From assembly GCA_964551475.1 (NCBI GenBank), contig CAZKCI010000023.1, forward strand, positions 7,289 through 71,288: a stretch of DNA of 64,000 nucleotides, in the 5' to 3' direction. A program made the translations under genes and the position numbers. Source of the DNA: an uncultured bacterium (lineage in GTDB: Bacteria; Auribacterota; Erginobacteria; Erginobacterales; CAZKCI01). Below, piece by piece: positions 5,456 through 49,595 of the stretch; the stretch's first letter is position 1, and the number at the start of each line of letters is the position of its first letter. The notes beneath the pieces are model-generated. The model saw only the letters and a list, made by a program, of their open reading frames with translations. It made no database searches and was not told where the DNA came from.

Positions 5456-5461
5456 GGGAAT

Positions 5462-5575
5462 TGGGTCAGGAGATTGGTCTGGTCTAGGGGTCAGGTTGAT
5501 GGTGCCGGCCGACCTTTGACCTTGCCCATCGACCAAACCACTATCCTTACCCTAACCCATCAACCAGATCCACAT
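5462..5575. repeat. Intergenic imperfect-palindromic repeat element, family A (GGGTYAGG / CCTTACCC units), copy 1
   Basis: gggtcaggagattggtctggtctaggggtcaggttgatggtg...caccatcaacc-like complement ccttaccctaacccatcaacc; homologous copies at ~12310, 38172, 54003, 58607 and a partial copy at 19688. Confidence 0.75.
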
Positions 5576-5601
5576 TGTATATAGCACACTGCGACGCTCT
5601 G

Positions 5602-20752: not shown

Positions 20753-21410
20753 CCGCCTTCTCCGCCAGAATCACCACGCCCGGCGCCAGGAACTCGACCG
20801 CCGGGCGCAATGCCAAGAGAGCCGGGAAGCGGCGGATGAGAGCCGCCCGACCGCGGCGGGAGAAGATGCCCTCGATGCGCAGGGGCGTGAAGCCGTTCTC
20901 CCTGAGCAGAGCGACCAGATCGCGGACGCCGAAGTAGTGGATGTGCCCCCCGTCGTAGTCGGAACCGGGTCGCGACGAGGTGAGGGGGAACGAACCTCCC
21001 AGGACCAGGCTCTTGAGTCTCCTCCAGTAGCGGATGTTGGGCGTGGAGAGGATAAGGAGCCCCCCCGGCCGGAGCGATCGTCCGATCCGGCCGATCAACG
21101 CGCCGGGATCGCGAACATGCTCGATCACGTCGAGACAGGCGGCGGCCGAGAGGTCCCGGCCGGGAAGCTCGCCCGCTTCGACATCCGCCTGCGCGACGAA
21201 CACGCCCCTGTCCCGCGCGGCGCGCAGTCTCTCCCAATCGGCGTCAATCCCCACCCCCCTGCTGTACTTTTCCCGGCTTTCGATCAGAAAACGCCCCTCC
21301 CCGCAGCCGACGTCGAGAAGCGTCTCCACCGGGGGGAGGAGGCGGGCGGCGACCGCCTCGCGGCAGTGAGAAGGAAGCTGGGCGCGATCAATGGTATCCG
21401 GGGATTTCAT
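20655..21410 (-). CDS. Class I SAM-dependent methyltransferase (Methyltransf_11-like) with Arg-rich low-complexity C-terminal tail
   Basis: LLDVGCGEGRF motif I, LDVIEHV, LRPGGLLILSTPN; the 3' end overlaps the convergent SGNH gene by ~98 nt. Confidence 0.65.
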   Translation of the reverse strand: MKSPDTIDRAQLPSHCREAVAARLLPPVETLLDVGCGEGRFLIESREKYSRGVGIDADWERLRAARDRGVFVAQADVEAGELPGRDLSAAACLDVIEHVRDPGALIGRIGRSLRPGGLLILSTPNIRYWRRLKSLVLGGSFPLTSSRPGSDYDGGHIHYFGVRDLVALLRENGFTPLRIEGIFSRRGRAALIRRFPALLALRPAVEFLAPGVVILAEKAAKDRRGEPSPAPGRASPRRRGSARPRDGRPRR

Positions 21411-21958
21411 TTGGATGCCGCGCGCGCCCGATAATAAGACCGTTTCTCTCGCACGGCGAAGCCGATCCGCCGGCGGGCACGGCGAGGCGGATTCATCAAT
21501 CGGCGCAGAGCAGTGAAGACGACGCGGAACTGGGCGTCGTATTTTCTCTCCAGTTCGTCTAATTCCCTCGCCAGGCCGGAGTGGGTGGCCAGAATCTGCC
21601 GAAGCCGGATGAAGGCTCGCATGATGGCGATATTCACTTGAATGGCGCGTTGACTATTGAGGACGCTCGATAGCATCGCCACGCCCGGTTCGGTGAAAGC
21701 CATCGGCGGATAGCGTAGACCCAGGCGGTCGGATTTGGAGGTGCCAAATTGGCGCCTCCAATTTGTCAACTCTTGCTGATCCAACACAAACATGAAATCT
21801 ACCGGGAAACGATCGATGTTCCGTCGAACCGCTCTTTTCAGGGATTTGGCGTCGATCCCGTATAACAAGGCCAAGTCACGATCCAGCATCACCTTCTTCC
21901 CGCGCAGGAGTAGTATTTTGCTCTCGATCCGTTCCGTCAGAATCATCTTATCGCTCAT
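21407..21958 (-). CDS. ORF6N domain protein (KilA-N-like, phage antirepressor-associated domain)
   Basis: ILLLRGKKVMLDRDLALLYGIDAKSLKRAVRRNIDRFPVDFMFVL matches the ORF6N domain consensus; noticeably lower GC than flanks. Confidence 0.7.
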   Translation of the reverse strand: MSDKMILTERIESKILLLRGKKVMLDRDLALLYGIDAKSLKRAVRRNIDRFPVDFMFVLDQQELTNWRRQFGTSKSDRLGLRYPPMAFTEPGVAMLSSVLNSQRAIQVNIAIMRAFIRLRQILATHSGLARELDELERKYDAQFRVVFTALRRLMNPPRRARRRIGFAVREKRSYYRARAASK

Positions 21959-22210: not shown

Positions 22211-23722
22211 TCAGTTTGATTTCATGCATCTGCTCACCCTCACCCTCTCCCCCTTCCGCACCGGCACGGGGGAATGGGGCCGTTCCCCCTCGCCCGCTTT
22301 CATCCCCAGATCGCGCGCCGTCCTTGAGGTCATCCCGACGACCAGCGCAAACAGGAAGGCATTGGCCGGGATATGAAAGTTGAAATCCATGAAGCTGTGG
22401 ACGATGAGCGCGGTGGCGGAGGCGTATCCCCCGACGAGGAGGAAACGGCGGCTCAGGGGGCCGGGAAGAAGGGTCGGGGGGCGGCGGGACGACTTCCGCC
22501 CGGGCAGGAAGTCGGGATGGAGCGAGCGCAGCGGCAGGTAGAAGGAGAGCAGAGCGGCGAGGACGATAAGCAGGCCGATCATCCCCGTCTCCACGGCGAG
22601 CTGGAGATAGTCGTTCTCGGCGAAGGGGTAATCGTAGCGGGTGGAGAAGGACTTGTAGCGGCCGATCCCGTGCCCCTCCGGGTTGTAGACGAAAGCGAAG
22701 GTGTTGAGTCCCGTCCCGAGAAGGGGGTAGTCGCGGACGATCTCGATCGAATCGGACCAGACGCGCAGGCGGTGGGGGGGGGCCTTTCCGGTCGGGTGCA
22801 GGCGTTCGAGAAGCTGGTCCCAGCCGAAATAGGTGAAGGCGGTGAGGAAGAAAAGGAGGAGGACGAGGAGGGCCTGAACGATCGCCCGGGTGCGGGCGAG
22901 GCGCAACCGGCGGCAGAGTAAGGCGAAGAGGCCGAGGGAAAGGAGAAAAGAGAGGATCCCGCCCCGGGAGACGGTGAGAAAAAGGGCGAGGGCCATGATC
23001 AGAATCATGAAGACCATCAGCGCCTGGACCGGATCGAAGCCGGAGGGCGAGCGGCGGCGGGGCCCCTTGTGGAGACGGTCGGAGAGGAAGAGGGACAGGG
23101 AGAGGGGGATGACCATGGCGATGAAACCGGCAAAATGGTTGCGGTTGACGAAGGGGCCGAAGGGATGCGCCCGGGGGTCGCTCACCTTCCGGATCCAGTA
23201 GAGCTTCCCGGACCAGCTGAACTTCTGGATGATCCCGAAGAGGGAGAGGACGAAGCCGAAGGCGGTGAGGACGAGGATCATCCGGGTGAAAACGGAGAGA
23301 GATTCGGCGTCGTCCGCCTCCGCGACCGCGAGAAAGACGGCCAGGCAGGCGATGAGGCGCATGAGCTCGGCGAGCGTCGCGGCGGGGCGGGAGGAGAGAG
23401 GACGCCAGCTGCCGGCGCCCTCGTTCCCGCCGGCGGGGGCAGAGGCGGAATGGAAAAGATCGTTCAGAGCGGGAGGCAGAGGAAGAAGCTGAAACAAGAC
23501 CAGAAGAAAAAAGAGGCCCAGGCAGACGCCCAGGGGGGAGGCGAGCGACGGAAAACGGAGAGACCCCGCCCGCGCCTTGGACCAGAGGAGAAGAGCGAAG
23601 AGAACGGCGGCGCCAAGGTTGAGGACCGCGGAAGACCAGCCTTCGACGCCCCCGAAAGCCAGGGCGCCGAAGGCGACCAGGAGGAGAGCGCCCCAGGAAA
23701 TCAAGGAAGCGAGCGATGTCAT
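22211..23722 (-). CDS. O-antigen ligase domain (Wzy_C) membrane protein
   Basis: Start MTSLASLISWG...; multi-TM; motif FAENDYLQLAVETGMIGLLIVL matches the Wzy_C consensus; ATGA overlap with the upstream giant gene; the listed 999-aa ORF is a spurious 5' extension. Confidence 0.7.
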   Translation of the reverse strand: MTSLASLISWGALLLVAFGALAFGGVEGWSSAVLNLGAAVLFALLLWSKARAGSLRFPSLASPLGVCLGLFFLLVLFQLLPLPPALNDLFHSASAPAGGNEGAGSWRPLSSRPAATLAELMRLIACLAVFLAVAEADDAESLSVFTRMILVLTAFGFVLSLFGIIQKFSWSGKLYWIRKVSDPRAHPFGPFVNRNHFAGFIAMVIPLSLSLFLSDRLHKGPRRRSPSGFDPVQALMVFMILIMALALFLTVSRGGILSFLLSLGLFALLCRRLRLARTRAIVQALLVLLLFFLTAFTYFGWDQLLERLHPTGKAPPHRLRVWSDSIEIVRDYPLLGTGLNTFAFVYNPEGHGIGRYKSFSTRYDYPFAENDYLQLAVETGMIGLLIVLAALLSFYLPLRSLHPDFLPGRKSSRRPPTLLPGPLSRRFLLVGGYASATALIVHSFMDFNFHIPANAFLFALVVGMTSRTARDLGMKAGEGERPHSPVPVRKGERVRVSRCMKSN

Positions 23723-26700
23723 CCGGTCCCCTCGCGCGGCTGCGAGACGATGGAGAGGAGAAGGAATATCAGAAGGGTCGCCATCAGATGAGGCGCATAG
23801 GACGGGCGGGACCGGGGAGCGAGAAAAGGACGGAGGATGTCGTCGGGACGGGCGGGGAGGCGCACAGGCGCCGGGGCTTTCGTAGGCGCCCAGAGGTCCT
23901 CCAGTCCCCGCGGATCGGAGCGAATCCGGTCCCATTGGCCGAGAAGCGAAGCGGCGGGGAAGATGCGGATGGCGGGGTCGAAGGAAACAGAAGACTCGCG
24001 CAGAAGCCCCCAGTAGTAAAACTCGTTCTCGAAGAGGGAGGGCAGATAGCTCAGATAGGAGGGCGTCCGGAAGAGATCGCCGGAGGAACGGCGGGCGACC
24101 TCGCTGATCTCGTAGTATTCCTTCCGGGTATAGAACCAGGATCCGTGGGCGAGCTCGATGTAGTCGGAATACATCATCGCTCCCGGGGGTTCCTGGGCGG
24201 CCGACGCCGACAGGTCGTCCCAGGAGGCAGCCGGGCGGAGATCGGGCCAGGGGGACAGATCCTGGCAGATCAGCGTCGCCACTCCGTGGGGGATGAAATG
24301 TATCCAGGCCCAGGCTTTGACCCGGTCCGGCGCCCAGCGGGCGAGGCGAAAGGTCTCGAGCCTCCCCCAGTGGCTGAGAAGCAGGATAAGCATCAGAGCG
24401 CCGATCGCCCAGCGAAAAGGACGCCAGCGGCGGACGAGATCGCGGGCGGCGGCGGCCATGATGACGACGAGCGGTATCCAGGCCGGGAAGTAATGGCGGA
24501 TGACCTGCGCTGCCCCCGTATACGTGACGGCGACGGCGGCGCCGAAGAAGAGGGCGAGCAGAAATCCGAGGCCCTCCGGCAAGCGGCGGCGGCGGACGGC
24601 CCCAGCCGCCCAGATGAGGGACGAGATGGCCGCCGCGGTCGCCAGGGGTCCTTCGGAGACGAAAAGGTAGCGCCAGAAAAACCAAAAATCCACCGGCAGC
24701 GCCCGGGCGTGGAGGAGGTTGTCCCGGAAGGTGGCGGCGAGGATGCGGTGATAGGGGACATAGGAGCTTCCGACCGTGCGGGTGGAAAGGAAGCTCAAGA
24801 CCTCCCAGCCGAGCCAGACCGCGGCCGCTCCGCCGAGCAGGGCGATTCCGCCGACAACAATTTCTCTCCGGCGCGGCCCCCGGAACAGCCTCAGGATGCG
24901 CCAGACGCCGTCCACGGCGAGCAGGCAGAAACCCGGCCAGAGGTCGGACGAGCTGAAGAAGAGGCTGGCCCCGACGAGAAGGCCGGCGGCGAGGAAACGC
25001 CGGGGGCGGCCGGAGGACCGGGCGGCAAGGTAGGCCCAGAGGGCGAGGGCGAACCAGAGCCCGCCCCCGGTGGCATGGATCCCCCAGGTGGAGTAGGTCA
25101 CGGCCCAGGGGGAGATCGCCCAAAGAAAGGCGGCGACCAATCCTGCCGCGCGGCCGGCGGCCCGCCGTCCCAGGCCGTAGATCAGGAGGACCGTGATCAG
25201 CCCCTTGCAACAGGTCCAGAACTGGATCGTCCGGGCCGAGGACCCCAGCAGGTAGTCGAGGAGACAGCGCTCCAGGAGGAAGAACGGCTTGGCCATCGAG
25301 GTGACGGTCTTGTTCACGTCGAGCTGGGTGAGGTGGACGGCGAGGATGAAGGGAGAGGCGATCCCCCGGCCTTGGAAGAGCGGGAAGGTCCTACCCTTCT
25401 CCACATAGGTCCGGTATTCGGCGTCGTCGCCGCCCATCTGGGAGAAGCGTTTCAACCCGTGGAAACGGAAGACGGCGGCCACGGCCAGAACGAGAGCGAG
25501 AACGATGACCAACCGCGCGGCCTGGAGCCCCCGGACAAGTTCGGACGGCGCGGGCGCGGAGAGGAAGAGGACGAGGAGACCGAGGGCGAGAAGGGCCAAG
25601 AACGGCGGCCAAGCGCCCCGGAAGGGGAAGACCGCGAAACGGACGAAAGACCAGTAGATGTTCGTCCCCCGAGCCCCGTCTTCGTGGACCCATTTGACCG
25701 TGACCGCGTCGGCCGGACGGGGAGGATGGGCGCGAAAGGCGAGGACCGCCGCGACCGGGATGACCCGCAGGTCGGGGTCGAAAACCTCCTTCCTCTGGCG
25801 CACGAATCCCCAGTAGTAGTCCTCGTTCTCGTAAAGAAAGGAGGGGTCGGAGAGGTGGGTGCCGGCGCGGAAGGCCTCCCCCTCGATCGCCCGGCAGGAC
25901 TGGGCGATCTGGAACATCTCGAGGGGATAATCCCAGATCCCCCGGGTGATGGCCAGGTAGTCGCCATAGACCAGGTAGAGCGGGCCTTGCGCCTTCTCCC
26001 TCTGGGCAAGCTCGGACCAGCTGTGGAATCGAGGAACCTCCGGCCAGAGAGCGGCGGGCTGATTGGCGGGGGCGAGGACGCGACCGGCGGGAGCGTTTTC
26101 ACTCATCCAGGCGGCGAGGCGGAAAGCGCCCTGTCGGCTGTACCGGTAGACGAGAAGACTTTTCCCCGAGAAAAGGAGGGCGGCGAGGAGCAGGAGGGCA
26201 AGAATCGCCCCCCGGACGAAGCGGCGGGAACCGGAGAAAAGGACCCTCCCCTTGAGCCAGGAGGCGGCCAGCCCCCCGATCGGCGCCAGGGCGAGCGACC
26301 AGGCGAAGACATAGTGGCGGGCGCACTGGGTCGAACCCGACCAGGTGGCGGCGGAGATCGAAGCGAGGGAGGCGGCGAGGAGAGCAAGCAGGGGGAAACG
26401 ATCGGAACGGTCCGTTCGGAACACCGCCCGGACGGTCCAGATCAGCGAGACAATCCAGAGAATGAGCTGGGGCCGGCCTTCGGTGGCGTGGATCAGACGA
26501 AGCCAGAAAAGATGATCGATCGGAAGCAGGCTGGCGTGAAAAGCGTTGTCCTCCGCGGTCTGGGCGAAGCCGGCCCAGAAGGGACGGTACGGAACCGCCA
26601 GGATCCGGGACTGGATGAGACCGAGCGCCTCCCAGAGAAGAGGGAGAAGGAGGAAACCGAAGAGGAGCGTGAGACAGCCGCGGAGCGCTTTCCGGCCGGG

Positions 26701-27426
26701 CGGGCGGGCGGCAGACCGCGCGTCCCCCTGGTAGCCGCAGGCTTGAGCCTGCGCTCCCTCCAGCCACCGGCGGATCGCGGCCAGGCCGAGAACGGCGACC
26801 GCCGGCCAGATCACGGTCGGATTGGCCAGAACCGCCGCCCCGAGGCAAATCCCGACCAGCAGGGGAATAAAGCGCAGAGCGACAAGACCACGGAAGGCGA
26901 GAAGGAGGAAGAGGAGGCTGTCCATGGTGGGTATGCCGTATGTGCTGTAGCGGGTGAGCCAGGGGGAGACGGCGGCGAGGGAGGCGGCGATCAGGCCGGC
27001 CGCCGATCCGAAGAGGCGGCGGCCGATGGAGAAGACGACCAGAACGACGGCAAGACCGGAGATCGCCAGCGACCACTGCTGGCGGTACAGGGTCAGACCG
27101 ACCGCGCCTTCGATCGCCGAGAGCTTCAGCATATAGAGGGGCTTGGCCAGCGAGGTGAAGGCCATATCACGGTAGGAACGCCGGGCGAGGTCGTTGGCGA
27201 CCATGAAGGGGGAGAAGGCCCTGAACGCGAATGAGGAAGAGGGATGGCTCAGGCGCCAGGAGGAGTAGCCGTCGCGGACGCTGTTGAGATAGGAGGCGTC
27301 GTCACCCGGCGTGGGGCCGTAGGTGGAGAGATCGAAGAGGCGGACCAGTCCCGCCAGGGCGAGGATCAGCAGGAGGATCGCGCCGACGCTGACAGCTGAT
27401 TTTCTGGTCCTGGACGGAGAATTCAT
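23719..27426 (-). CDS. Giant (~1235 aa) membrane protein made of two tandem GT-C (ArnT/PMT-like) modules, each ending in a YENE(D/F)YYWG-containing soluble domain
   Basis: Two colinear modules, each with ~10 TM helices; a DD motif in the first loop (TPGDDASY / MGGDDAEY); shared ...MAKP(L/F)(Y/F)(M/L)L..., SPW(L/A)(T/V)(R/T)YSTWG, and C-terminal ...YLVYGDYLAI.../...MMYSDYIELAHG... and FLYENEDYYWGF/LFENEFYYWGL; start set at internal ATG 27426 (MNSPSRTRK... then TM). Confidence 0.6.
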   Translation of the reverse strand: MNSPSRTRKSAVSVGAILLLILALAGLVRLFDLSTYGPTPGDDASYLNSVRDGYSSWRLSHPSSSFAFRAFSPFMVANDLARRSYRDMAFTSLAKPLYMLKLSAIEGAVGLTLYRQQWSLAISGLAVVLVVFSIGRRLFGSAAGLIAASLAAVSPWLTRYSTYGIPTMDSLLFLLLAFRGLVALRFIPLLVGICLGAAVLANPTVIWPAVAVLGLAAIRRWLEGAQAQACGYQGDARSAARPPGRKALRGCLTLLFGFLLLPLLWEALGLIQSRILAVPYRPFWAGFAQTAEDNAFHASLLPIDHLFWLRLIHATEGRPQLILWIVSLIWTVRAVFRTDRSDRFPLLALLAASLASISAATWSGSTQCARHYVFAWSLALAPIGGLAASWLKGRVLFSGSRRFVRGAILALLLLAALLFSGKSLLVYRYSRQGAFRLAAWMSENAPAGRVLAPANQPAALWPEVPRFHSWSELAQREKAQGPLYLVYGDYLAITRGIWDYPLEMFQIAQSCRAIEGEAFRAGTHLSDPSFLYENEDYYWGFVRQRKEVFDPDLRVIPVAAVLAFRAHPPRPADAVTVKWVHEDGARGTNIYWSFVRFAVFPFRGAWPPFLALLALGLLVLFLSAPAPSELVRGLQAARLVIVLALVLAVAAVFRFHGLKRFSQMGGDDAEYRTYVEKGRTFPLFQGRGIASPFILAVHLTQLDVNKTVTSMAKPFFLLERCLLDYLLGSSARTIQFWTCCKGLITVLLIYGLGRRAAGRAAGLVAAFLWAISPWAVTYSTWGIHATGGGLWFALALWAYLAARSSGRPRRFLAAGLLVGASLFFSSSDLWPGFCLLAVDGVWRILRLFRGPRRREIVVGGIALLGGAAAVWLGWEVLSFLSTRTVGSSYVPYHRILAATFRDNLLHARALPVDFWFFWRYLFVSEGPLATAAAISSLIWAAGAVRRRRLPEGLGFLLALFFGAAVAVTYTGAAQVIRHYFPAWIPLVVIMAAAARDLVRRWRPFRWAIGALMLILLLSHWGRLETFRLARWAPDRVKAWAWIHFIPHGVATLICQDLSPWPDLRPAASWDDLSASAAQEPPGAMMYSDYIELAHGSWFYTRKEYYEISEVARRSSGDLFRTPSYLSYLPSLFENEFYYWGLLRESSVSFDPAIRIFPAASLLGQWDRIRSDPRGLEDLWAPTKAPAPVRLPARPDDILRPFLAPRSRPSYAPHLMATLLIFLLLSIVSQPREGTG

Positions 27427-27508
27427 CGAGGGGAAAGCTCTGCCATCAACCTGCGTTCTCATAGAGAATAACCGATCGGGAGAGGAGAAAACAGGGGAAA
27501 CCCCGCAA

Positions 27509-27531
27509 AATGAATGTCCTCCGGACATTCA
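27509..27531. promoter_or_regulatory. Perfect 10-bp inverted repeat (ATGAATGTCC-tcc-GGACATTCAT) in AT-richer divergent promoter region
   Basis: Lies in the ~210-nt gap between the giant minus-strand GT-C gene (start ~27426) and the plus-strand sulfatase-like gene (27637); followed by tgaaatgatgaaatatatatgcaatattaag. Confidence 0.5.
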
Positions 27532-27636
27532 TCGCGGGGCAAGCAGGAGGCATATTGAAATGATGAAATATATATGCAATATTAAGCGAAAGAGCGGCTG
27601 ACCGACACGGCGGCTTTTCCGCCCTTCCTATTACCC

Positions 27637-29124
27637 ATGCACCACCGGTTTCGGACAGCTTGCGCCCTCCTCTTTCTTCTCGTCGTCTCCTGCCGGCCCT
27701 CTTCCCCGCCGCCGGAACGGCCCGACATCATACTGATCTCCATCGATACCCTCCGGGCCGACCGCCTCGGCGGCTACGGCTACCCCCGGCCCACCTCGCC
27801 CGCCATCGACGCCTTCTCCCGCGAGTGCGTCCTTTTCAAAAACGCTATCAGCCAGTCCCACTACACCGCTCCCGCCCACATGTCGATCTTCACTGCTCTC
27901 TCCCCCTTCGTCCACCGGATCGACAACATCGAGCCCCAGGGAGAGACCGTCTCCACGCTCTCTCCCGAGATCCCCAGCCTGGTCGAGGTCCTCGCCAGCC
28001 TCGGCTACGCCACGATCGGAATGCACGGGGGAGCCAACCTGGATCCGCAGTTCGGCTTCGGACGAGGATTCGATTCCTACACCGCCGACTTCTACGACTG
28101 GGAGAAAAAGCAAGGAGCCGATCCTCGCCATCTGGAAACCGTCCTGAACGCGCTCCGAAAACGGATCCGGGACAGCCGCCGGGAAGGGGGTCCCCTCTTC
28201 CTCTTCCTCCACCATTTCCTCTGCCACGACCCCTATCTGGAGGGGCCCGAGGATCTCCGCTACCGCTTCGTCGAGAGCGTCCCGGAAGGTCTTCCGGACC
28301 GAAGAGAGGATCCGGCCAGGGTGAGCGATCCCGGAGACGAAAAGAACTATTTCTGGAACCGGGTCAACCTCGCCGAGCCGGACGATCGGCGCTATGCCTC
28401 CGACCTGTATGACGGCGGCGTGCTCTACTCCGATTTCCTTCTCCGGGAATTTCTGGACTGCCTGAGAAAGGAGGGGGTCTACGACAACGCCGTCGTCATT
28501 CTCCTCTCCGACCACGGAGAGGAGTTTTACGAACACCAGGGGCATCTTCACGAAAACCTGTTCATCGAAAACCTCCACGTCCCCCTGATGATCAAATTCC
28601 CCCAGGGCCGCGGCCGGGGGCGGGTCGTCGAAACGCCGGTGCGGACCATCGACACGCTGCCTTCGGTCTTCGACTACCTCGGCCTCCCCATCGCCCACCG
28701 CGTCCAGGGTGTCTCCTTCATCCCTCTCCTCACCGGAAACGGGTCCTACCTCCCGCCCCTGGTCTCCTACGCTTTCGCCCGGCCGCCCCACCACCAGGAC
28801 TCCGTCCGCATCCGGGACGGCGATGACGTCTACACCAACTTTCGCTGGCAGGGCATCCCCGACTGGCTCTTCGACGCCGGGAACGACCCCCGTGAGGAGG
28901 AAAACCTGGCCGGGGAAAGAATCGAGGCGGTGGAAAGACTGCGGGAGAAAACGCGGGAGATCGCAAATAGCGACGCCGCTTTCCGGCGTCTTTTCGTCGG
29001 CCGGGCCGCGGCGAAGAAGGCGCCCGGGGTGAAGACCCCCGCCGGAAGATCATCTTCTCCGAACACTCCGAAGATCGACCCGGAACTCTGGAATCAGATG
29101 AAGGCGCTGGGATACCTCAAATGA
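27637..29124 (+). CDS. Sulfatase-like hydrolase/transferase (alkaline phosphatase superfamily), predicted lipoprotein
   Basis: N-terminal lipobox LLVVSC; DIILISIDTLRADRLGGYGY sulfatase N-terminal block; no CxPxR seen (TAPAH instead), so possibly a Thr-nucleophile phospho-transferase type. Confidence 0.65.
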   Translation: MHHRFRTACALLFLLVVSCRPSSPPPERPDIILISIDTLRADRLGGYGYPRPTSPAIDAFSRECVLFKNAISQSHYTAPAHMSIFTALSPFVHRIDNIEPQGETVSTLSPEIPSLVEVLASLGYATIGMHGGANLDPQFGFGRGFDSYTADFYDWEKKQGADPRHLETVLNALRKRIRDSRREGGPLFLFLHHFLCHDPYLEGPEDLRYRFVESVPEGLPDRREDPARVSDPGDEKNYFWNRVNLAEPDDRRYASDLYDGGVLYSDFLLREFLDCLRKEGVYDNAVVILLSDHGEEFYEHQGHLHENLFIENLHVPLMIKFPQGRGRGRVVETPVRTIDTLPSVFDYLGLPIAHRVQGVSFIPLLTGNGSYLPPLVSYAFARPPHHQDSVRIRDGDDVYTNFRWQGIPDWLFDAGNDPREEENLAGERIEAVERLREKTREIANSDAAFRRLFVGRAAAKKAPGVKTPAGRSSSPNTPKIDPELWNQMKALGYLK

Positions 29125-29227
29125 ACGCAGGGAGCAGGGAGTGGGGAGTAGTGAGTAGTAAATTATTAAAATCCTTCCCCCCCGGGGAGCGGATTGATGA
29201 AAACGGCGTCTATCGATCCCTTCCCTT

Positions 29228-31321
29228 TCACCCCAGCATTTCCAGCTCGCCCAGGGAATAGAAATAGTGCGCGGAACCTTGATGACCGTCAGAGATGAGC
29301 AACTGGTAGTAACGGAAAGCCTGATCGTTGTCGAATGTCCAAGAATAGCTTTGGCCCTCGACGGGCGGATCGTCTTGGGCCACGGGCGCCAGCAGATTCC
29401 AGGTTTTCCCGTCCTGACTCGCCAGGAGCTGGGCCAGGCGGAAAAATTGCTCGGGGTGCCCGCGCCGCGGCCGGGCCGTCAGCGACCGGATCACCCGGGC
29501 CCGACCGGCGCCGAAATCGACCGTCACCCAGGCGGTTTGCCCGATTTTATCCATCGCCACGTGCCAGAAGGTATCCGGGTCCTCATCCCGCAGGTTCTCG
29601 ACCTCTCCCCCCCCGGAGCTTTCGGACGAGGCCTCCAGCGATACCCCGGGGACGAGAAGCCGGTTCCTTGCCTCCGGGGGACGGAGTTCCAGTTCCTTGA
29701 AGAGCCAGAGCGCGCGGACGGGGAAGCGCGGACGCAGCGCCTCGAGCAACGTAGTCTCCCACCGCCGATGCCACGCTTCGGCGACGAGGGCTCGGGAGAC
29801 CGTTTCCCCGGTCATCTCTTTCGCCTCATTCGGGAAGTAATGTGGGTAGCCGTAGACATCCGATCTCCCATGATTCGCCAGCGCCGCTTGGTTGATGAAG
29901 CGGAAGTTCGGAATCGAGATGATGAGCAAACCGACGAGGAGGCACCGGTTCAGGGTCGCGAAAGGCTCTTCCCGGATAGAAAACAACAGCGCGAACGGCA
30001 AGGTAACGAACAGGGAAAACAAGGCCCCGTAATAATAGGGTGTTTCGATCAGGCGCAGGTGTTTGGCCAGAATCGCCGTTTGGAAGATTATGAAAAGAAG
30101 CAGCACGGCGAGCGCGCGGAGAAATGCCTTTTTCGCCCAGGCGGGCAACTGAAAAAAAGCCGTCACGACATACACGAAGAGAAAGATGGCCGCGCCGGTA
30201 TAGACTTTCTGGACGTGCAGCGCCGCGCGGACAGGGGCCGGCATGATCAGGCTGCCCAGCAGATGGCGCCCGTTCGAGACGATGCTCCCGAACTTAAACT
30301 GCTGCCAGATATTGGAAGACTGGGCGTAGTGAGGCCTCCAGATGCACTGCCAGAACTGGAAATCGCCGAAACCGCATCCCTTGATCACCCGGGGAGCGAT
30401 CCACGTCACGAAGCATAAAAAGAAAACGAAAACCAGCGCATACCCGCACAGCGCCGCGATCATATTCTTCCTGGCGCTAAAGATATTCGGATAAAGGATC
30501 GGGATGCAGAAAAAGATGAACCAGGCCGTTTCGTCTAGAAAAAACGCGATGAATATGGTGGCGACGAGCCCCGCATAGGCGAGCGCGAGGCGCCGAGCGA
30601 TCCGATCCCCCTGTTTCGTGAAAGACCTGATCCTGGCGGCGAGGGCAAGGCCCGCGCGAAGGCACCCGCCGTCCGCCCCCGGCGGGGAGCCCCGAAGAAT
30701 GGCCGGCGAGAGCAGCGTCCACTGCAGCGCCTTTTTCCCGAAATATTCTTTCCGCGCGAGCAGGCGGTCGATGCGGGAAGACAGATACAGGCTCAGAATC
30801 GCCGCAAAGAGGGTCAACGGCTTGCCGGGGTGAAACAGCAGGGTAATCCCGGACAAAAAGCCGACCGAGAGGATATAGAGCGAGATCCCCGACCAGGCCG
30901 AGAGATGGCTGCGCGCGAAATTGCGCAGGAACTTGAAGAGCAGGAGAGGCGAGAGAATGAGAGTGAATATCCAGGTCAGGGAAAGGCTGGGATGCGGGGG
31001 AAAATACTCCCAGAGCCAAACGCGGAATTTCACATTGATGATCAGCACGGCATAGGATAAAAACCGGGCGCGGGCGATGGCGTCAAAGCTCCAGCAGTCG
31101 AAACCTCGCAACAAATCTCCCGGGACGAGGCGAGACCCGTTTCTAAAGGCATTGGGAATGCAGCGAGAGACGATCTCCGGATGGGTCCAATTGGCATTGT
31201 AGTTAAAAATAACGCCGAGAACATAGGCCAGGGCGAAAACGAAGATCGCCCGATAAATAAAAGCATCTCCCGGCCACGCGGCGAAGGGGCGGGGCCGGCC
31301 CACGGTTGCCTGCCGGCTCAT
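29228..31321 (-). CDS. Polytopic membrane protein with C-terminal F5/8 type C (discoidin) carbohydrate-binding domain
   Basis: ~14 TM helices over ~480 aa, then GGGEVENLRDEDPDTFWHVAMDKIGQTAWVTVDFG...TWNLL... resembling the discoidin-domain signature (DxDPxTxW). Confidence 0.6.
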   Translation of the reverse strand: MSRQATVGRPRPFAAWPGDAFIYRAIFVFALAYVLGVIFNYNANWTHPEIVSRCIPNAFRNGSRLVPGDLLRGFDCWSFDAIARARFLSYAVLIINVKFRVWLWEYFPPHPSLSLTWIFTLILSPLLLFKFLRNFARSHLSAWSGISLYILSVGFLSGITLLFHPGKPLTLFAAILSLYLSSRIDRLLARKEYFGKKALQWTLLSPAILRGSPPGADGGCLRAGLALAARIRSFTKQGDRIARRLALAYAGLVATIFIAFFLDETAWFIFFCIPILYPNIFSARKNMIAALCGYALVFVFFLCFVTWIAPRVIKGCGFGDFQFWQCIWRPHYAQSSNIWQQFKFGSIVSNGRHLLGSLIMPAPVRAALHVQKVYTGAAIFLFVYVVTAFFQLPAWAKKAFLRALAVLLLFIIFQTAILAKHLRLIETPYYYGALFSLFVTLPFALLFSIREEPFATLNRCLLVGLLIISIPNFRFINQAALANHGRSDVYGYPHYFPNEAKEMTGETVSRALVAEAWHRRWETTLLEALRPRFPVRALWLFKELELRPPEARNRLLVPGVSLEASSESSGGGEVENLRDEDPDTFWHVAMDKIGQTAWVTVDFGAGRARVIRSLTARPRRGHPEQFFRLAQLLASQDGKTWNLLAPVAQDDPPVEGQSYSWTFDNDQAFRYYQLLISDGHQGSAHYFYSLGELEMLG

Positions 31322-32031
31322 CGCGTCGCCTCGGGCTCTCGCCCCCGACGCAACTCTTTCCAGAACAGGCCCAGAAAAGCCGCGCCGGTCGGCAGCGAGC
31401 TGGATTTGCTCTTCCCGCCGATCCGGTCCCCCTCGATGGTGGGGATTTCCCCGACCCTCAGGCCCAGCTTCATCGCCCGGATGGACAGCTGATACTCAAT
31501 CAGGTAACCGTCCGCGTCCGGATGAAGGCGGGCAAAGGCCTCCTTGGTGATGGCCCGGTAGCCGTTGATGCTGTCGCTCAAACTTCCCTTCCAGGTTTTA
31601 TTGGCCGCCCAGGTGAACGCCTGATTCGCCCACTTGCGCCAGGGCCAGGCCGCCTCATCTTCCTCATTGCGGGAACCGGGTAAAAAGCGCGAGGCGATCG
31701 CCATGTCCGCGCCGTTCTGGAGCACGGAGAGGAGCCGCGGGATGTCGGCGGGGTCTTCGTTGCCGTCCGGGCTGAAGAAGACGATATGCTCGCCCGCCGC
31801 GCGATCGACCGCGATCCGGAACGCCTCCCCCCTTCCCTTTTTCTCCTGGGAAAATACGGGCACTCCCCGGCTCCGGAGAAACTCCGCCGTGCCGTCGGTG
31901 GAGCCCCCGTCCACTGTGATAACCTCGCCGACCAGCGCTACGGGGATCCGGTCGAACAGGGCCCGCACCCCCGCGATCTCGTCGTAGGTGAGGAAAACGA
32001 GGGTGCTCCTGACGTTTGGTCTCTTTTCCAT
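31318..32031 (-). CDS. GT2 polyprenyl-phosphate sugar synthase (DPM1/ArnC/GtrB-like)
   Basis: STLVFLTYDE...VITVDGGSTDGT...FFSPDGNEDP...IASRF; 4-nt overlap with the discoidin-membrane gene. Confidence 0.75.
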   Translation of the reverse strand: MEKRPNVRSTLVFLTYDEIAGVRALFDRIPVALVGEVITVDGGSTDGTAEFLRSRGVPVFSQEKKGRGEAFRIAVDRAAGEHIVFFSPDGNEDPADIPRLLSVLQNGADMAIASRFLPGSRNEEDEAAWPWRKWANQAFTWAANKTWKGSLSDSINGYRAITKEAFARLHPDADGYLIEYQLSIRAMKLGLRVGEIPTIEGDRIGGKSKSSSLPTGAAFLGLFWKELRRGREPEATR

Positions 32032-32059
32032 ATCAAGGGCGGCTCAGCGACATCGGGAT

Positions 32060-32126
32060 AAACGGTTCACGGTTCAACGGCTTACGGTGAGTTTGTCATT
32101 CCTCCAACCGTTAAACCTTTGAACCG
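32060..32126. repeat. GGTTCA-heptamer inverted repeat, family C, copy 3
   Basis: acggttcacggttcaacggcttacgg ... ccaaccgttaaacctttgaaccgg. Confidence 0.7.
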
Positions 32127-32127
32127 G

Positions 32128-33099
32128 CTATTGGGAATTGCGGCGATACCACTCGATCGTCCGCTGGAGCCCCTCCCGCAGGGAAACCGCGGCTTCGTAG
32201 CCGAGGAGGCTTTCGGCCTTGGCCGTGCTCGCCTGGCGGCGCATCTGCCCGGAGGGTCGCCGGGGGTCAAAAACGATACGGGGACTCTCCCCCGCGAGCT
32301 CGGCGATAAGCGCGATCAGCTCTTTGATCGTGATCTCTTCCTCGGCGCCGATATTGACCGGGTCGGCCTCGGGATACTTCTCCACGGCCAACAGCAATCC
32401 CCGGGCAACATCGGTCACATACACGAACGCCCGGCTCTGCTCGCCGTCGCCCCAGACCGTCAGAGGATCCTGTTTCTCCACCACTTTGCGGATCAACGCC
32501 GGGATGACATGGGAGCTTTCCCATTGGAAATTATCCCGCGGTCCATAGGCATTGTACGGCCGGGCGATGGCAATCCGCATCGGGTATTGGAGGGCGTAAC
32601 AGCGCCCCTGCGCTTCCGCCACCCGTTTCGCCCACCCGTAGCCCAGGTTGGTGGGTTCGGGGTCGGAAAGAAAACCCTCGTCCTCCGGCGTGGGGACGCT
32701 GGACTCCCGGGGATAGACGCAGGCCGAGCTCACGCAGAGATATCTCTCCACCCCACTGCGAACGGCGGCTTCCATCACGTTGGCGTTCATCACCACATTG
32801 GCGTAAAACAGCGCGCCCGGACGGGCGGCGTTGTAACCCACACCCCCGACGTGGGCGGCGAGGTGCAAGGCGCAGTCCATCCCGCGGCAAGCGCGCAGGC
32901 ATACGTCGAGATCGGAGAGGTCTCCCGGGCTGAAATCCACCTCCGCGAAGGAGGAGCCCAGGTGGCGGCGCGATTTCTCCTCCGAACCGTCGGCCACCCG
33001 CACCCGGGCGCCTTCCTGAAGCAGCATCTCCGTCAGGTGAGAGCCGATAAAACCTCCCCCGCCCGTCACCAGGACTTTTTTATCCTTCCAGAACGACAT
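32128..33099 (-). CDS. NAD-dependent epimerase/dehydratase (extended SDR; UDP-glucuronate decarboxylase/ArnA-C-terminal-like or 4-epimerase)
   Basis: KVLVTGGGGFIGSHL, YxxxK region VSSACVY...GYGWAK; start at internal ATG 33099 (MSFWKDKK), overlapping the stop of the upstream fusion gene by 1 nt. Confidence 0.75.
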   Translation of the reverse strand: MSFWKDKKVLVTGGGGFIGSHLTEMLLQEGARVRVADGSEEKSRRHLGSSFAEVDFSPGDLSDLDVCLRACRGMDCALHLAAHVGGVGYNAARPGALFYANVVMNANVMEAAVRSGVERYLCVSSACVYPRESSVPTPEDEGFLSDPEPTNLGYGWAKRVAEAQGRCYALQYPMRIAIARPYNAYGPRDNFQWESSHVIPALIRKVVEKQDPLTVWGDGEQSRAFVYVTDVARGLLLAVEKYPEADPVNIGAEEEITIKELIALIAELAGESPRIVFDPRRPSGQMRRQASTAKAESLLGYEAAVSLREGLQRTIEWYRRNSQ

Positions 33100-34988
33100 C
33101 AGTCGGCGGCTCCCGGGCGGCGGAACACCCTCCCTTTCCAGAGTTCCTTGACGAGTATGCCCACCATGTGAAAAACGGACCACGCTATTTTGTAGCCAAC
33201 GTCCTCGCGGGACTTGACCGATTCGCGGGTGGGGATTTCGATCACCTTCCACCCGGCTTCCATCGCCCGGATGGACATCTGGTAGTGGTAGCCCAGGCCG
33301 GAGGCATCAAGGCCGAGACGGGCCAGGCTCGCTTTTCTGACCGCGCGGAAGGTGTTCAGGGGGTCGGTGAGGTTGCCGTTAAAGAGGACATTGGCCAGCA
33401 GCGAGAAAAACCGGTTTCCCAGCCCCCGGAAGGGGATGGAGCGCCGATAGTCGCTTTTGTGCCCCCCGGGCATGAGCCGCGAGGCGATGACCAGGTCGTA
33501 TCCCTGGTCCAGCAGAAGCCGCAAGCGGTGGATGTCTTCCGGATCCTTGGACCCGTCCAGCTCGAAAAAGACGATGCCCTCGCCCGCAGCCAGCGCGGCG
33601 CCGGCCGGGAATGGGTCGGGGGCGACGGACACCGGGACTTTCTTCTCCTCCCAGAACTCCGGCGTCCCGTCGGAAGATCCCCGGTCGACCACCACAAGCT
33701 GATTGAACATCTCTCGGGGGATGGAATCGAAGACTTGGCGAGACAGATCGAGCGAGTCGAAGGTGGCGATGACCAGGGTGAAGTTCCGGGCGGCCTTCTC
33801 CCGCGGCCGCCCGGAGAAGTAGCTGTGGAAACGCCCGATCAGGTAATCCAGGTCCACCGAAGACAGGTCCTGGTGGCAGCCGACGTAGAAACCGCCCCGG
33901 TTGATCCAGTCCGCCGCCGGGTAATCCTTCGGATCGAGTCGGAACAGACGGCGGTAGACCGGCTGGGTGATCAGGGGGAACATCTCCCGGGTTTCCACCC
34001 CGTGCTCTTCCAGATAATTGACCAGATTCTCCTTGCTCTCCTCCCTGAGTACGATCGGATACATCATGAAGGAATGCTCGCACTCCGGCCGGATCGCCGG
34101 AAGCTGAATCCGGTCTTCGAGATCGCGCAACCCCTCGGTCAGATAGCGGGCGTTCCGGCGGCGGCGGGCGATCATCTCCTCCCAGGTTTCGAGCTGGGCC
34201 AGCCCCAGCGCCCCCTCCATCTCGGTGACCCGGTAGCTGTGCCCCAGGCTGACGAAAGAGAAGCGGCGGGCGACGATCATCCTCATCTCTTCCCGGGTCT
34301 TGTTTTCGTCGTCGTCGATGCTGATGTAGATGGAATCCCGCCCGTGGTTCAGCAACGAGCGCAGGGCGACGGCGCACTCGGGATCGTTGGTGGTGCACAG
34401 CCCCCCGACCCCGGTGACGATCAGGTGGGCCACGTAGGTGGAGAAACAGCCGATATCTCCCAGGCCGCCCACCCATCGACCCCGGTAGCGGGCGAACATG
34501 GTTTCGCAGGAGTCCTCGATCACGCCGAGCCGGCGGGAGCGGGCGATCTCGAGGATGGGATCCATCGCGCAGGGGAGGCCGAAGAGATGGACGGGGAGGA
34601 CGGCGCGCGTGCGGGGGGTGATCCGGGCTTCGATCCGGCTGGGGTCGATCCCGTAGTAGTCCTTCTCCACGTCCACGAAGACCGGTCGCAGATTGTTGTG
34701 GAGAACGCAGTTGGAGGTGGCGATGAAGGTGACCGCCGGGACGAGCACTTCGTCCCCGTCCCGCCAGCCGCGCTGCTCCTTGAGGGCGGCCAGCGCGATC
34801 GTGAGCGCGCTGGTCCCGCTGTTGGTCATCACCCCGAAACGGCAGCCGTGGAGGTGGGCGAATTTCTCCTCGAACCTCATGGTGAAGGGTCCGTAGGAGA
34901 GACGGTTGCTGCCCAGGACCTGGCGGACGTACTCCTTCGCCCGTTCGCTGACGGTGAGCGTGCCGACTTTTATGATCGGTGTTTCCAT
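33099..34988 (-). CDS. Fusion protein: DegT/DnrJ/EryC1/StrS-family PLP sugar aminotransferase (N-terminal ~400 aa) + GT2 polyprenyl-phosphate glycosyltransferase (C-terminal ~230 aa)
   Basis: N-terminal KEYVRQVLGSNRLSYGPFTMRFEEKFA...MTNSGTSAL...VIEDSCETM...(aminotransferase class V/DegT fold); C-terminal FTLVIATFD...VVVDRGSSDGT...FFELDGSKDPEDI...IASRL (DPM1/ArnC-like). Confidence 0.8.
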   Translation of the reverse strand: METPIIKVGTLTVSERAKEYVRQVLGSNRLSYGPFTMRFEEKFAHLHGCRFGVMTNSGTSALTIALAALKEQRGWRDGDEVLVPAVTFIATSNCVLHNNLRPVFVDVEKDYYGIDPSRIEARITPRTRAVLPVHLFGLPCAMDPILEIARSRRLGVIEDSCETMFARYRGRWVGGLGDIGCFSTYVAHLIVTGVGGLCTTNDPECAVALRSLLNHGRDSIYISIDDDENKTREEMRMIVARRFSFVSLGHSYRVTEMEGALGLAQLETWEEMIARRRRNARYLTEGLRDLEDRIQLPAIRPECEHSFMMYPIVLREESKENLVNYLEEHGVETREMFPLITQPVYRRLFRLDPKDYPAADWINRGGFYVGCHQDLSSVDLDYLIGRFHSYFSGRPREKAARNFTLVIATFDSLDLSRQVFDSIPREMFNQLVVVDRGSSDGTPEFWEEKKVPVSVAPDPFPAGAALAAGEGIVFFELDGSKDPEDIHRLRLLLDQGYDLVIASRLMPGGHKSDYRRSIPFRGLGNRFFSLLANVLFNGNLTDPLNTFRAVRKASLARLGLDASGLGYHYQMSIRAMEAGWKVIEIPTRESVKSREDVGYKIAWSVFHMVGILVKELWKGRVFRRPGAAD

Positions 34989-35157
34989 GCTAGAAAGCGA
35001 TGCTCGGTAACAGTAAAGAGTCAGAAAAAGAAGTTATGTATGACCGAAATGATTTCGTTCCCGTTCACATCCGCGTTCACGGAGACGCGACGGGTACGTG
35101 AACGTGTACGAGAACGTGAACGTTTACGTGTGCGCAAACGCGTAACCGTGCGTAACC

Positions 35158-37140
35158 TCACGTATCCTCATGTAACCTCTTTTTTCCCCGCAGGCACACC
35201 AGCGTATAGGCGAAGAGCACCGCGGAGGCGATAATCCCCGGCATGAGATACGAGGGCCTCTCCAGGCGGTCCATGAAGGGGAGGATGATCCGGTCCTTCC
35301 AAGCGGGGATGACCACCGGAGGGGGGCGGGACAAGCGCTCCTGAAGACGCCCCAGGGCGCCATCGTCCGAGCTGAGCTCCTGGTTGACGCGGAGCACCTC
35401 CCGGGCCGGGATGACCCTGATCCGGGGGTCAAAATCGGACGCGGGGCGGCGGTAGAGACCCCAGTAGTAGAACTCGTTCTCGTAGAGCATCGGCCGGTAG
35501 GAGAGATAGGAGGGGCAGGCGAAAGCGGTCGCCCGGCAGAGGCGGAAGGTCTCGGCCATCCCCAGTTGCTCCTTGGTGTGGTAGAACCAGGCGCCGTGGG
35601 CGATCCCGATGTAGTCGGAATACATGATGTAGGGTCGGTGGTGGGAGTTGATATAGGCGTCGAGCTCCTTCCAATCGTGGAAGAAGGACATGGTCGGCCA
35701 GAGGTCCCACTGCTGCATGTTCATCGTCGCCACCTGGCCCCGGAGCTGGTTGCGCTCTTCCCACAGACCATAGCGGTAGGGCCCCTGGCGGCTCAAACGA
35801 TAGTCCGACAGGCGAAAAAAGTTGAGCGCCGCCACGGCGACGGCCAGGGCGCAGAGAGGCCAGACCGCCCGGCGGAAACGGGAAAGAAGCGCGGAGACGC
35901 CGAGGCCCGTGATGACCGCGGCGAGAAGAAGGGCGGAGTAGTAGTGACGCGCCACCTGCGTCCCGCTGGTGTAGTTCATGATCACCGCCACTCCGATGAA
36001 GACCGCGGCCAGGCGAAGGCTCTCATCGTCCGCCGAATCTTTTCGGAGCAGGCGGACGAGAAGAAAGGCCAGCGCGGCGACGACCGCCACCAGGACCGGC
36101 CAGCCGTCGCTGTCCTTCAGGTGGCGGAAGAAGTAGAGGTGGTCGGCCGGAAGAGAGCCGGTGTGCGAGGCGTTGTCCTGGAAGGACTCCAGGAGGCGGC
36201 GGGGAAAAGGAACGTATCCGACCCGGGCAAAATCGATGGCGAAGGAGTCGGCGGAGGGGAATCGGCTGATCACCTCCCGGTTCTGGGCAAAAACTCGGAA
36301 CGAGGCGTAGTTCACCCCTTCCCAGGCGGCCAGGGGCAGGATGAAACCGAGGCTGAAGACGGCGAGGAGGAGGATCTGGCGGAGGGGACGGAAACGGCGG
36401 GCGGCGGCGACGAGGCGCCGGAGGAGCTCGAAGAGGCAGACGAAGAGAGCCGGCCAGACCAGGGAAATCGAGTAATAGACGGAGACGCCGAGAAAAACGC
36501 CGAAGCAGAGCGCGCGCAGGACGCTGTCGCGGCGGGTGGCGCCGGGAGCGGCCAGGAGGGCGAGGCAAAACCAGAGGCCGCCGCCCGCCGTGTGCAGGAC
36601 CCAGGTGGAGTAGCGGACCGCCCAGGGGGAGACCGCGAGCAACAAGGCGGCGGCGCAGCCGGCGGGGAAACCTCCCAGGCGACGGGCCAGGAAGAAGACG
36701 ACGAGCACGGTCGCCGTTCCCAGGACGGCCATCCAGATGTGCAGCCGCCGGATGTTCTCGTAGGGGTCGTTCGTGCGCAGATTAAAAACGGCGCTGACCA
36801 GGCCGATCTCCAGGATGAAGAGCGGCTTGGCGAAGGAGGTCACCTTCTTGTTGACATCCCAGTGGGAGAGATAAGCCGCGGCCAGAAAGGGCGCCTGGAA
36901 GCGGGGGAAATAGTATTTCTCCGCCCGCAGGATCTTCTCAAAGTTGTAGACGTGATCGGGGATGTGAACGCGGAACTCGACGTCGTCGCCCCCAACCTGG
37001 GAGAAATGCTCGAGCCCCCAGAAACGGAAAAGAGCGGCGAGAGCCACGCTGGCCAGGGGGACCAGCCAGCGCCAGCGGCGACGCGGAGAGAGGACAGCGG
37101 GGGAAGCAGCGGGGGGTGAGGCTGTGGCGGCGACGATCAT
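35158..37140 (-). CDS. GT-C fold membrane glycosyltransferase (ArnT/PMT-like) with C-terminal YENEFYYWG domain; paralogue of the two modules in 23719..27426
   Basis: GGDDVEF first-loop motif, FAKPLFILEIG, SPWAVRYSTW, C-terminal PYIMYSDYIGIAHGAWFYHTKE...LYENEFYYWGLYRRPASDFDPRIRVIP. Confidence 0.65.
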   Translation of the reverse strand: MIVAATASPPAASPAVLSPRRRWRWLVPLASVALAALFRFWGLEHFSQVGGDDVEFRVHIPDHVYNFEKILRAEKYYFPRFQAPFLAAAYLSHWDVNKKVTSFAKPLFILEIGLVSAVFNLRTNDPYENIRRLHIWMAVLGTATVLVVFFLARRLGGFPAGCAAALLLAVSPWAVRYSTWVLHTAGGGLWFCLALLAAPGATRRDSVLRALCFGVFLGVSVYYSISLVWPALFVCLFELLRRLVAAARRFRPLRQILLLAVFSLGFILPLAAWEGVNYASFRVFAQNREVISRFPSADSFAIDFARVGYVPFPRRLLESFQDNASHTGSLPADHLYFFRHLKDSDGWPVLVAVVAALAFLLVRLLRKDSADDESLRLAAVFIGVAVIMNYTSGTQVARHYYSALLLAAVITGLGVSALLSRFRRAVWPLCALAVAVAALNFFRLSDYRLSRQGPYRYGLWEERNQLRGQVATMNMQQWDLWPTMSFFHDWKELDAYINSHHRPYIMYSDYIGIAHGAWFYHTKEQLGMAETFRLCRATAFACPSYLSYRPMLYENEFYYWGLYRRPASDFDPRIRVIPAREVLRVNQELSSDDGALGRLQERLSRPPPVVIPAWKDRIILPFMDRLERPSYLMPGIIASAVLFAYTLVCLRGKKRLHEDT

Positions 37141-48707: not shown

Positions 48708-48728
48708 CTGCAGCCCCCGGTCTGACTA

Positions 48729-48795
48729 TTGTGGGAGGGGCATTCTTGCCCCGATCCAGGCCGACCCGGATCGCGACAGGAATGTCGCTCCCACA
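48729..48795. repeat. Family D hairpin repeat, copy 3
   Basis: tgtgggaggggcattcttgccccgatccaggccgacccggatcgcgacaggaatgtcgctcccaca. Confidence 0.75.
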
Positions 48796-48834
48796 GAAGG
48801 GCAAGACAAGACACGCGCCACGGCGTTTGGATCA

Positions 48835-49563: not shown

Positions 49564-49595
49564 GGCGGGACAGATGTGTTGGAGCGACACAGAAA

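Follow-up and report, generated by a model that had tools for sequence, protein, structure and literature searches.

The stretch of DNA analyzed here, called the window throughout, comprises 64,000 nucleotides of contig CAZKCI010000023.1 (assembly GCA_964551475.1) from an uncultured bacterium and has a GC content of ~63%. Its minus strand carries a long gene encoding two complete GT-C glycosyltransferase units in one polypeptide (the N and C units, in order of translation), and a separate gene encoding a single unit of the same kind, the paralogue S (P0010). Across all domains of life, cells rely on GT-C enzymes to build and decorate their envelopes and glycoproteins, and several of these enzymes are obligate dimers; a fused GT-C protein would provide a single-chain system in which the cooperation of two GT-C active sites can be studied. 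The open reading frame (ORF) that includes the fused gene spans 23719..27528 and would give 1269 aa from its first ATG, while the public gene call begins at 27426 and gives a 1235 aa protein (P0001), the same start as in a preliminary description of this locus. Because the ATG at 27528 sits inside a perfect 10-bp hairpin within the AT-rich intergenic leader, a start at 27426 or 27462 is more likely. The inverted repeat in this leader (~27510-27532, minus strand) reads ATGAATGTCC-GGA-GGACATTCAT followed by TTTT; it has the divergently transcribed sulfatase and fused genes on either side and could act in regulation as a hairpin or attenuator. Third-codon GC is 0.82 in the fused frame and 0.85 in the frame of the single paralogue, and both minus-strand frames are therefore coding. 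Two overlapping long ORFs, 23716..27234 (+) and 22211..25210 (-), were rejected as high-GC shadows by their codon-position GC.

When residues 1-640 of the fused ORF were aligned against residues 641-1269 using BLASTP, a significant internal repeat was found, with 32% identity over 544 aa (E=6e-50). P0010 is homologous to both halves, matching the C unit at 35% identity (E=1e-91) and the N unit at 31% (E=3e-52), which bears out the earlier proposal that one polypeptide holds two complete GT-C units and that a third paralogue exists. No fourth copy of the unit was found when P0010 was searched against the entire window using tblastn. Every motif cited in the preliminary description is present, though not always in the form given: the C unit reads LFENEFYYWG instead of carrying YENE, and the N unit reads YGDYLAITRG instead of YSDY..AHG. 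TS(L/M/F)AKP, SPW..YST and Y(G/S)DY occur in all three units. A GDD motif is found in the N unit (27298-27303) and the C unit (25423-25428), with GGDD in the single paralogue (36982-36993), and ENE(D/F)YYWG appears as ENEDYYWG in N (25807-25830) and as ENEFYYWG in C (24007-24030) and S (35458-35481). An alignment of 23 units has 45 invariant columns, including G51-D52-D53, K105-P106, S-P-W 171-173, W273-E274, D322-N323 and Q395/R398 in the core, and Y507-x-D509-Y510 and E554-N555-E556-x-Y558-Y559-x-G561 in the soluble domain; W560 is kept in all units but one.

A fusion of this kind could arise in the data if a recent tandem duplication had been mis-joined during assembly, or if a stop codon or frameshift between two genes had been overlooked. 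A search covering 5.8 billion clustered proteins identified nine full-length fused proteins of 1208-1268 aa (45-100% identity) from JGI, NCBI, ENA and Logan assemblies, eight of them, at 45-77% identity, other than the window's own. All nine share the junction unbroken in the alignment as a hydrophobic helix, a short linker bearing Arg/Lys and the first transmembrane (TM) helix of the next unit, with a linker of ~3 residues between the modelled helices, so the junction is read through in eight diverged orthologues drawn from all four sources. The identical fused protein is present on two contigs and P0170, a member of the same ≥90%-identity cluster, on two more, and GTDB representative genomes contain the fused gene at two loci, one labelled ‘uncultured bacterium’ and the other ‘PVC group bacterium’. 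The halves are just 32% identical as proteins and their DNA similarity is limited to patches of 51-76 nt at 72-78% identity, leaving no repeat able to mislead an assembler. Additionally, no free-standing N-clade or C-clade proteins were found among the homologues recovered by protein and hidden Markov model (HMM) searches. The fusion is genuine, and the possibility of a misassembled tandem duplication, which the preliminary description had asked to be checked, is excluded: with next to no chance left to it, the artefact explanation is refuted in practice.

Table 1. Positions of the fused gene, its parts, the single-unit paralogue and other features in the window and at related loci.
Feature	Position	Strand	Remarks
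Fused two-unit GT-C gene	23719..27426	-	1235 aa, P0001; ORF open to 27528
N unit	25522..27426	-	TM core, periplasmic domain, terminal TM helix
Junction	25465..25611	-	N-unit terminal TM helix (WPPFLALLALGLLVLFLS), few-residue linker, C-unit TM1
C unit	23722..25521	-	Includes C-terminal TM anchor
Single-unit paralogue (S, P0010)	35158..37140	-	660 aa
Wzy_C (O-antigen ligase/polymerase-like) membrane protein	22211..23722	-	
Sulfatase-family gene	27637..29124	+	Divergent from fused gene; adjacency kept in L002
Polytopic membrane protein with C-terminal F5/8 type C (discoidin) domain	29228..31321	-	
237-aa GT2	31318..32031	-	Best matches AglJ, dolichyl-phosphate hexose transferase, PpgS
SDR sugar-nucleotide epimerase/dehydratase	32128..33252	-	Best match GDP-fucose-synthase-like
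DegT-type sugar aminotransferase + GT2 (polyprenyl/dolichyl-phosphate-sugar synthase type), one ORF	33099..34988	-	
Further GT-C genes	40906-43395, 44584-47283, 47280-49590	-	YfhO-like (829 aa), PMT_2 (899 aa), then amine oxidase + 251-aa GT2
Discoidin orthologues	L003 607-1170; L001 17293-17640; L006 ~13175-13525		Stand-alone or fused to GDSL domain

To place the fusion in time, we examined a neighbour-joining tree of the 23 units. It resolves three clean clades, N, C and S, with C sister to S and with a similar branching order in N and C, and both the duplications and the fusion are thus older than any of the sampled genomes. The units are duplicated as first described, but not recently, since the paralogue lineages split before the sampled genomes diverged. 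The single paralogue has an orthologue set of its own with seven proteins (50-100% identity), one single-unit family member is labelled Candidatus Aureabacteria, and at least three genomes hold both the fused and the single gene (the window, ENA contig L001, and GCA_975966495.1, in which they lie on two separate contigs). The N clade is the most divergent, at 33% identity to S and 38% to C. This divergence would fit a protein in which one fused unit is an inactive scaffold or substrate-binding partner and only one site works, in the manner of PIGU, the GT-C-fold non-enzyme of the glycosylphosphatidylinositol (GPI) transamidase; the N motifs are altered (TPGDD, YGDY..TRG, ENED), and the N unit is without the conserved tail ahead of its TM helix. 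All 45 invariant columns, GDD included, are nevertheless present in every N and C unit, and conservation within the N clade (59% identity) equals that within C (62%) and S (60%). Since both halves keep the motifs and evolve at the rate of the single paralogue, we predict that both are active, and an inactive half seems unlikely.

The fold of a unit was modelled using AlphaFold2 (AF2) with the 23 aligned units, and the model of P0010 has a predicted local distance difference test score (pLDDT) of 86.5 and a predicted template modelling score (pTM) of 0.90. Structural matches to this model, with their tabled figures, are Pmt4 (26.8), Pmt2 (24.3), STT3B (24.0), PglB (21.0), ALG12 (21.0), AglB (20.3) and ArnT (19.3), each aligning over ~355-385 residues that correspond to the TM core, and Foldseek was in agreement for both the fused and the single models. 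The GT-C(A) class is characterized by an N-terminal 7-TM module with two juxtamembrane (JM) helices between TM1 and TM2 (PMC12041299). The modelled units have this arrangement and, as judged from the models, are GT-C by fold. Another defining feature of the class is the catalytic Asp, which sits at the ‘tip of JM helix 1’ and is part of a DD motif in AftB (PMC12041299). In the unit model the first helix past TM1 spans residues 52-73 and has D52/D53 at its N-terminal end, so the predicted place of the GDD motif agrees with that of the catalytic Asp, as a match in position.

Topology was worked out from the modelled helices, a PMT-like layout of 7 helices, a loop and 4 helices, and the Lys and Arg residues in short loops; Kyte-Doolittle calling of TM helices was too crude for helix counts. 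Short loops predicted to be inside hold 12 of these residues in S compared to 7 outside, and 21 compared to 8 in the fused protein. We favour a 12-TM unit of 11 crossings plus a terminal helix, with both ends inside (N-in/C-in). The TM core would be PMT-like, with 7 + 4 crossing helices, a large loop of ~40-60 aa and, at the tip of the helix in the first periplasmic loop, the GDD motif. A soluble domain (~451-631, ~180 aa), predicted in the model as a small alpha/beta domain, comes next, and each unit ends with one further hydrophobic helix and basic residues. Through its terminal helix the N unit would bring the chain back to the cytoplasmic side, and the C unit would then insert in the normal orientation. 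Because both unit ends are predicted to be cytoplasmic, two units could be joined by a few-residue linker without inverting the second, and the terminal helix would be a simple topological trick that permits polytopic enzymes to be concatenated. We propose that an ancient duplication gave rise to three paralogue lineages, of which N and C would have become permanently fused into a protein of ~24 TM helices with two intact active sites. The periplasmic domain that the family adds has strongly conserved aromatic and acidic motifs, Y-x-D-Y and E-N-E-x-Y-Y-x-G, which probably serve in sugar or acceptor binding.

When 1.84 billion cluster representatives were searched exhaustively with the unit HMM profile, five matches reached E≤1e-30, namely three fragments, a fused protein and a single-unit protein, and the next match was at 6e-19. 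Of the generic GT-C matches re-scanned locally, none extended past profile position 520, the part that holds the soluble-domain motifs, and a word-indexed homologue search with the unit alignment gained only generic PMT_2 proteins. Within HMMER's reach, then, the family and its soluble domain are restricted to a small clade, and the units form a small lineage-restricted GT-C(A) family of the PVC group, Candidatus Aureabacteria-like. The sole Pfam family over threshold in the fused protein is PF13231 (PMT_2), at 37.1 bits against a gathering cut-off of 26.1; its best stretch is in the C unit (residues 759-856), so the match spans ~100 residues of one unit, and the single paralogue is under the cut-off at 18.8 bits. 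PF02516 (STT3) is under its threshold of 24.5 bits in the fused protein (22.9) and in the single unit (16), and the archaeal STT3 model TIGR04154 is far under (33.7 against a cut-off of 450). Neither PF02366 (PMT) nor MIR matches the units at E≤1, WWDYG is absent from them, with Y(S/G)DY as the nearest string, and the three C-terminal domains, scanned on their own, had no Pfam match at E≤10. By sequence the family thus falls outside PMT and STT3 and belongs only marginally to PMT_2. The Y-S-D-Y-I-G that follows a strand in the soluble domain bears a loose likeness to the WWDYG motif of oligosaccharyltransferases (OSTs). A reading of this domain as a degenerate OST WWDYG domain failed each test run and stays no more than a lead.

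The genes around the fused gene point to surface polysaccharide. An envelope-glycan island (~3.5-51 kb) contains GT4, GT2 and GT9 transferases, MurA-like and MurB genes, methyltransferases and GDSL esterases, as well as two Wzy_C genes and two further GT-C genes (YfhO-like and PMT_2), bringing the window to at least five GT-C modules. The Wzy_C gene next to the fused gene overlaps it, its ATG (23722-23720) sharing an ATGA with the fused-gene TGA (23721-23719), and the order of sulfatase, fused gene and Wzy_C is kept at locus L002, where Wzy_C is again directly downstream. The single paralogue leads a minus-strand run of aminotransferase-GT2, SDR, 237-aa GT2 and discoidin membrane protein genes. 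The aminotransferase part of the first has RfbH/PseC as its best match, and its product is a candidate maker of a lipid-linked amino-sugar donor; the fusion would couple amino-sugar nucleotide synthesis to lipid loading in an ArnB-ArnC-like way. The true start of the SDR gene is probably downstream of 33252. We regard the 237-aa GT2, on the basis of its sequence matches, as a candidate second lipid-phosphate-sugar synthase. Both GT2s find their best matches among polyprenyl/dolichyl-phosphate-sugar synthases, yet fall under the curated cut-offs. At locus L003 a small discoidin-domain gene precedes the fused gene, and downstream are an IS200-like gene and then porin and Wza/Wzc-type export genes.

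Taken as a whole, the account that we find fairly probable is a GT-C(A) family whose fused member is a two-site enzyme transferring sugars from polyprenyl phosphate onto a Wzy-type polysaccharide. Cytoplasmic GT2 synthases, one of them fused to a sugar aminotransferase in an Arn-like way, would make polyprenyl-phosphate-monosaccharide donors, and these sugars would be transferred in the periplasm to modify or extend a Wzy-type surface polysaccharide, with the two fused sites and the single paralogue each installing a different sugar or linkage. We infer the donor, a polyprenyl-(pyro)phosphate sugar, from the synthase-like GT2 genes in the island, and an Arn/Gtr-like scheme with three periplasmic GT-C sites is the most economical reading. 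Successive transfers by the two fused sites, as first suggested from the tandem arrangement, are plausible. The nearest structural relatives of the units, the PMTs, are obligate dimers (PMC12705809), and because of this the most fitting view of the fusion is that of a covalent heterodimer.

Several observations weigh against this account. The AF2 model of the fused protein, built on nine sequences, has a pLDDT of 66 overall and <50 in the soluble domains, although the TM cores are good, and AF2 shows 8 helices ahead of the large loop where parity needs 7, so the non-crossing helix was a guess. Links to known GT-C families are weak (PMT_2 at 37 bits in the fused protein, the single paralogue and STT3 sub-threshold), a comparison of the unit profile with PDB chain sequences gave one noise match (E=1.3), and no characterised close homologue was found. 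The nearest structural matches, PMT and STT3, act on proteins and not polysaccharides. The link to donor synthesis is not conserved, as the fused gene of GCA_975966495.1 (L004) sits amid unrelated genes, and no GtrA-type flippase was recognised by Pfam among the window ORFs scanned, with some small ORFs unscanned.

The structural matches lend themselves to a different acceptor, in which the enzymes would glycosylate proteins by PMT-like O-glycosylation or in an OST-like manner, with discoidin-domain or other envelope proteins as acceptors. Pmt4, Pmt2, STT3B, PglB and AglB are all protein glycosyltransferases, and in four diverged genomes, the window included, an F5/8 type C orthologue is a neighbour of the fused or the single gene (45-52% identity among the discoidin domains); the loose likeness of Y-S-D-Y-I-G to WWDYG may point the same way. 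Set against these points are the absence of a MIR domain and a WWDYG motif, STT3 and PMT Pfam models that are sub-threshold or absent, and conserved neighbours of another kind, Wzy_C and, in L003, the Wza/Wzc-type export genes. Protein acceptors are in our view somewhat unlikely. It is also conceivable that the two fused sites act as one polymerase alternating two sugars or linkages to build a periplasmic repeat polymer, as opposed to decorating side branches. Two lipid-phosphate-sugar synthase-like GT2s share the island, Emb/Aft GT-C enzymes polymerise arabinan from decaprenyl-phosphate-arabinose (general knowledge; PMC12041299), and the fusion sets a 1:1 stoichiometry and the closeness of the sites. 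The fused gene is not consistently accompanied by two GT2s, however, and the neighbouring gene already encodes a Wzy_C polymerase/ligase; we regard a polymerase as improbable. A more specific form, which we rate as quite improbable, is a covalent GT-C heterodimer acting in the periplasm as an alternating co-polymerase that makes a two-sugar repeat polymer from two polyprenyl-phosphate-monosaccharides, with the ENExYYWG domains holding the chain; if true, the enzyme would parallel, within the membrane and with a GT-C fold, the bifunctional glycosaminoglycan synthases of the cytoplasm.

Compared to known systems, the proposed transfer onto a Wzy-type polysaccharide has partial parallels. PMTs (GT39; Pmt1-Pmt2 heterodimer, Pmt4 homodimer) share with the units the layout of 7 TM, large extracytoplasmic loop and 4 TM and an acidic pair in loop 1, which is DE in PMT and DD in the units, and the fusion would make covalent a dimer that is obligate in PMT (PMC12705809). 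Unlike PMT, the units are without MIR in the large loop and without a PF02366 match, carry an additional soluble domain and one more TM helix at their C-terminal end, and lie in a bacterial polysaccharide-type context. With ArnT/PMT_2 (GT83) the fused protein shares the above-threshold PMT_2 match, and the DegT aminotransferase, SDR and GT2 domains of the neighbourhood mirror ArnB, the ArnA C-terminal domain and ArnC. The units differ from ArnT in that this match covers ~100 residues of one unit and is sub-threshold in the single paralogue, and in a periplasmic domain unrelated in sequence, while the neighbourhood differs from Arn in an aminotransferase that is fused to GT2 and nearest to RfbH/PseC rather than ArnB. 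In the GtrA/GtrB/GtrC and CsbB/GtcA/YfhO systems a cytoplasmic GT2 loads a sugar on polyprenyl phosphate and a periplasmic GT-C transfers the sugar to a surface polymer. The window has such components in two GT2 domains (the 237-aa GT2 and the C-terminal domain of the aminotransferase-GT2) and its GT-C units; a GtrA-type flippase was not recognised among the ORFs scanned, and in place of one GT-C module the scheme here would have three, of which two are fused.

The preliminary description had called a head-to-tail fusion of GT-C enzymes unusual. Among the 169 proteins retrieved, five unrelated metagenomic proteins have two GT-C cores in tandem (P0028, 1391 aa; P0063, 1403 aa; P0091, 1427 aa; P0127, 2315 aa; P0033, 906 aa), and the architecture therefore recurs in nature. 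BLASTP showed the halves to be homologous in three of the five, with those of P0033 52% identical, and P0127 also has DUF2298. Like the fused gene product, these proteins hold two PMT_2-type cores in one polypeptide; unlike it, they match just profile positions ~16-316, the TM core, and are without the ENExYYWG domain. None of the five is characterised, and at most they are named ‘ArnT-like glycosyltransferase’ at their source. Full-text searches found no papers on tandem or fused GT-C architecture, phrase searches being a weak negative, and the term unusual is only partly apt. Tandem GT-C proteins thus recur in metagenomes and are apparently undescribed, and a systematic survey of multi-core GT-C proteins seems nonexistent. 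What is new here is an orphan subfamily of GT-C(A) that combines a novel periplasmic domain and a terminal TM helix with a two-unit fusion fixed long ago; its practical impact is limited by its restriction to a rare uncultured lineage.

Other features of the region deserve brief mention. The TM part of the 697-aa discoidin membrane protein (~500 aa) has no Pfam match, and a relationship between this protein and the GT-C unit was rejected, as hhalign against the unit profile gave a probability of 0.2%. The arrangement of GT-C, amine oxidase and GT2 seen among the further GT-C genes of the window is also found upstream of the single paralogue in L006. The IS200-like gene of L003, an IS200/Y1 transposase-like gene at 5283-6290, is directly behind the fused GT-C gene. 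Between Wzy_C and a methyltransferase gene, and on the same strand, is an ORF6N-domain gene (21407-21958, -) that is absent from the syntenic L002; ORF6N is a phage antirepressor-type DNA-binding domain, which is odd within a glycan operon. Lastly, a 514-aa ORF without a Pfam match lies between GT4 genes (15108-16652, -), with a third-codon GC of 0.88 and 89% identity to its counterpart in L002.

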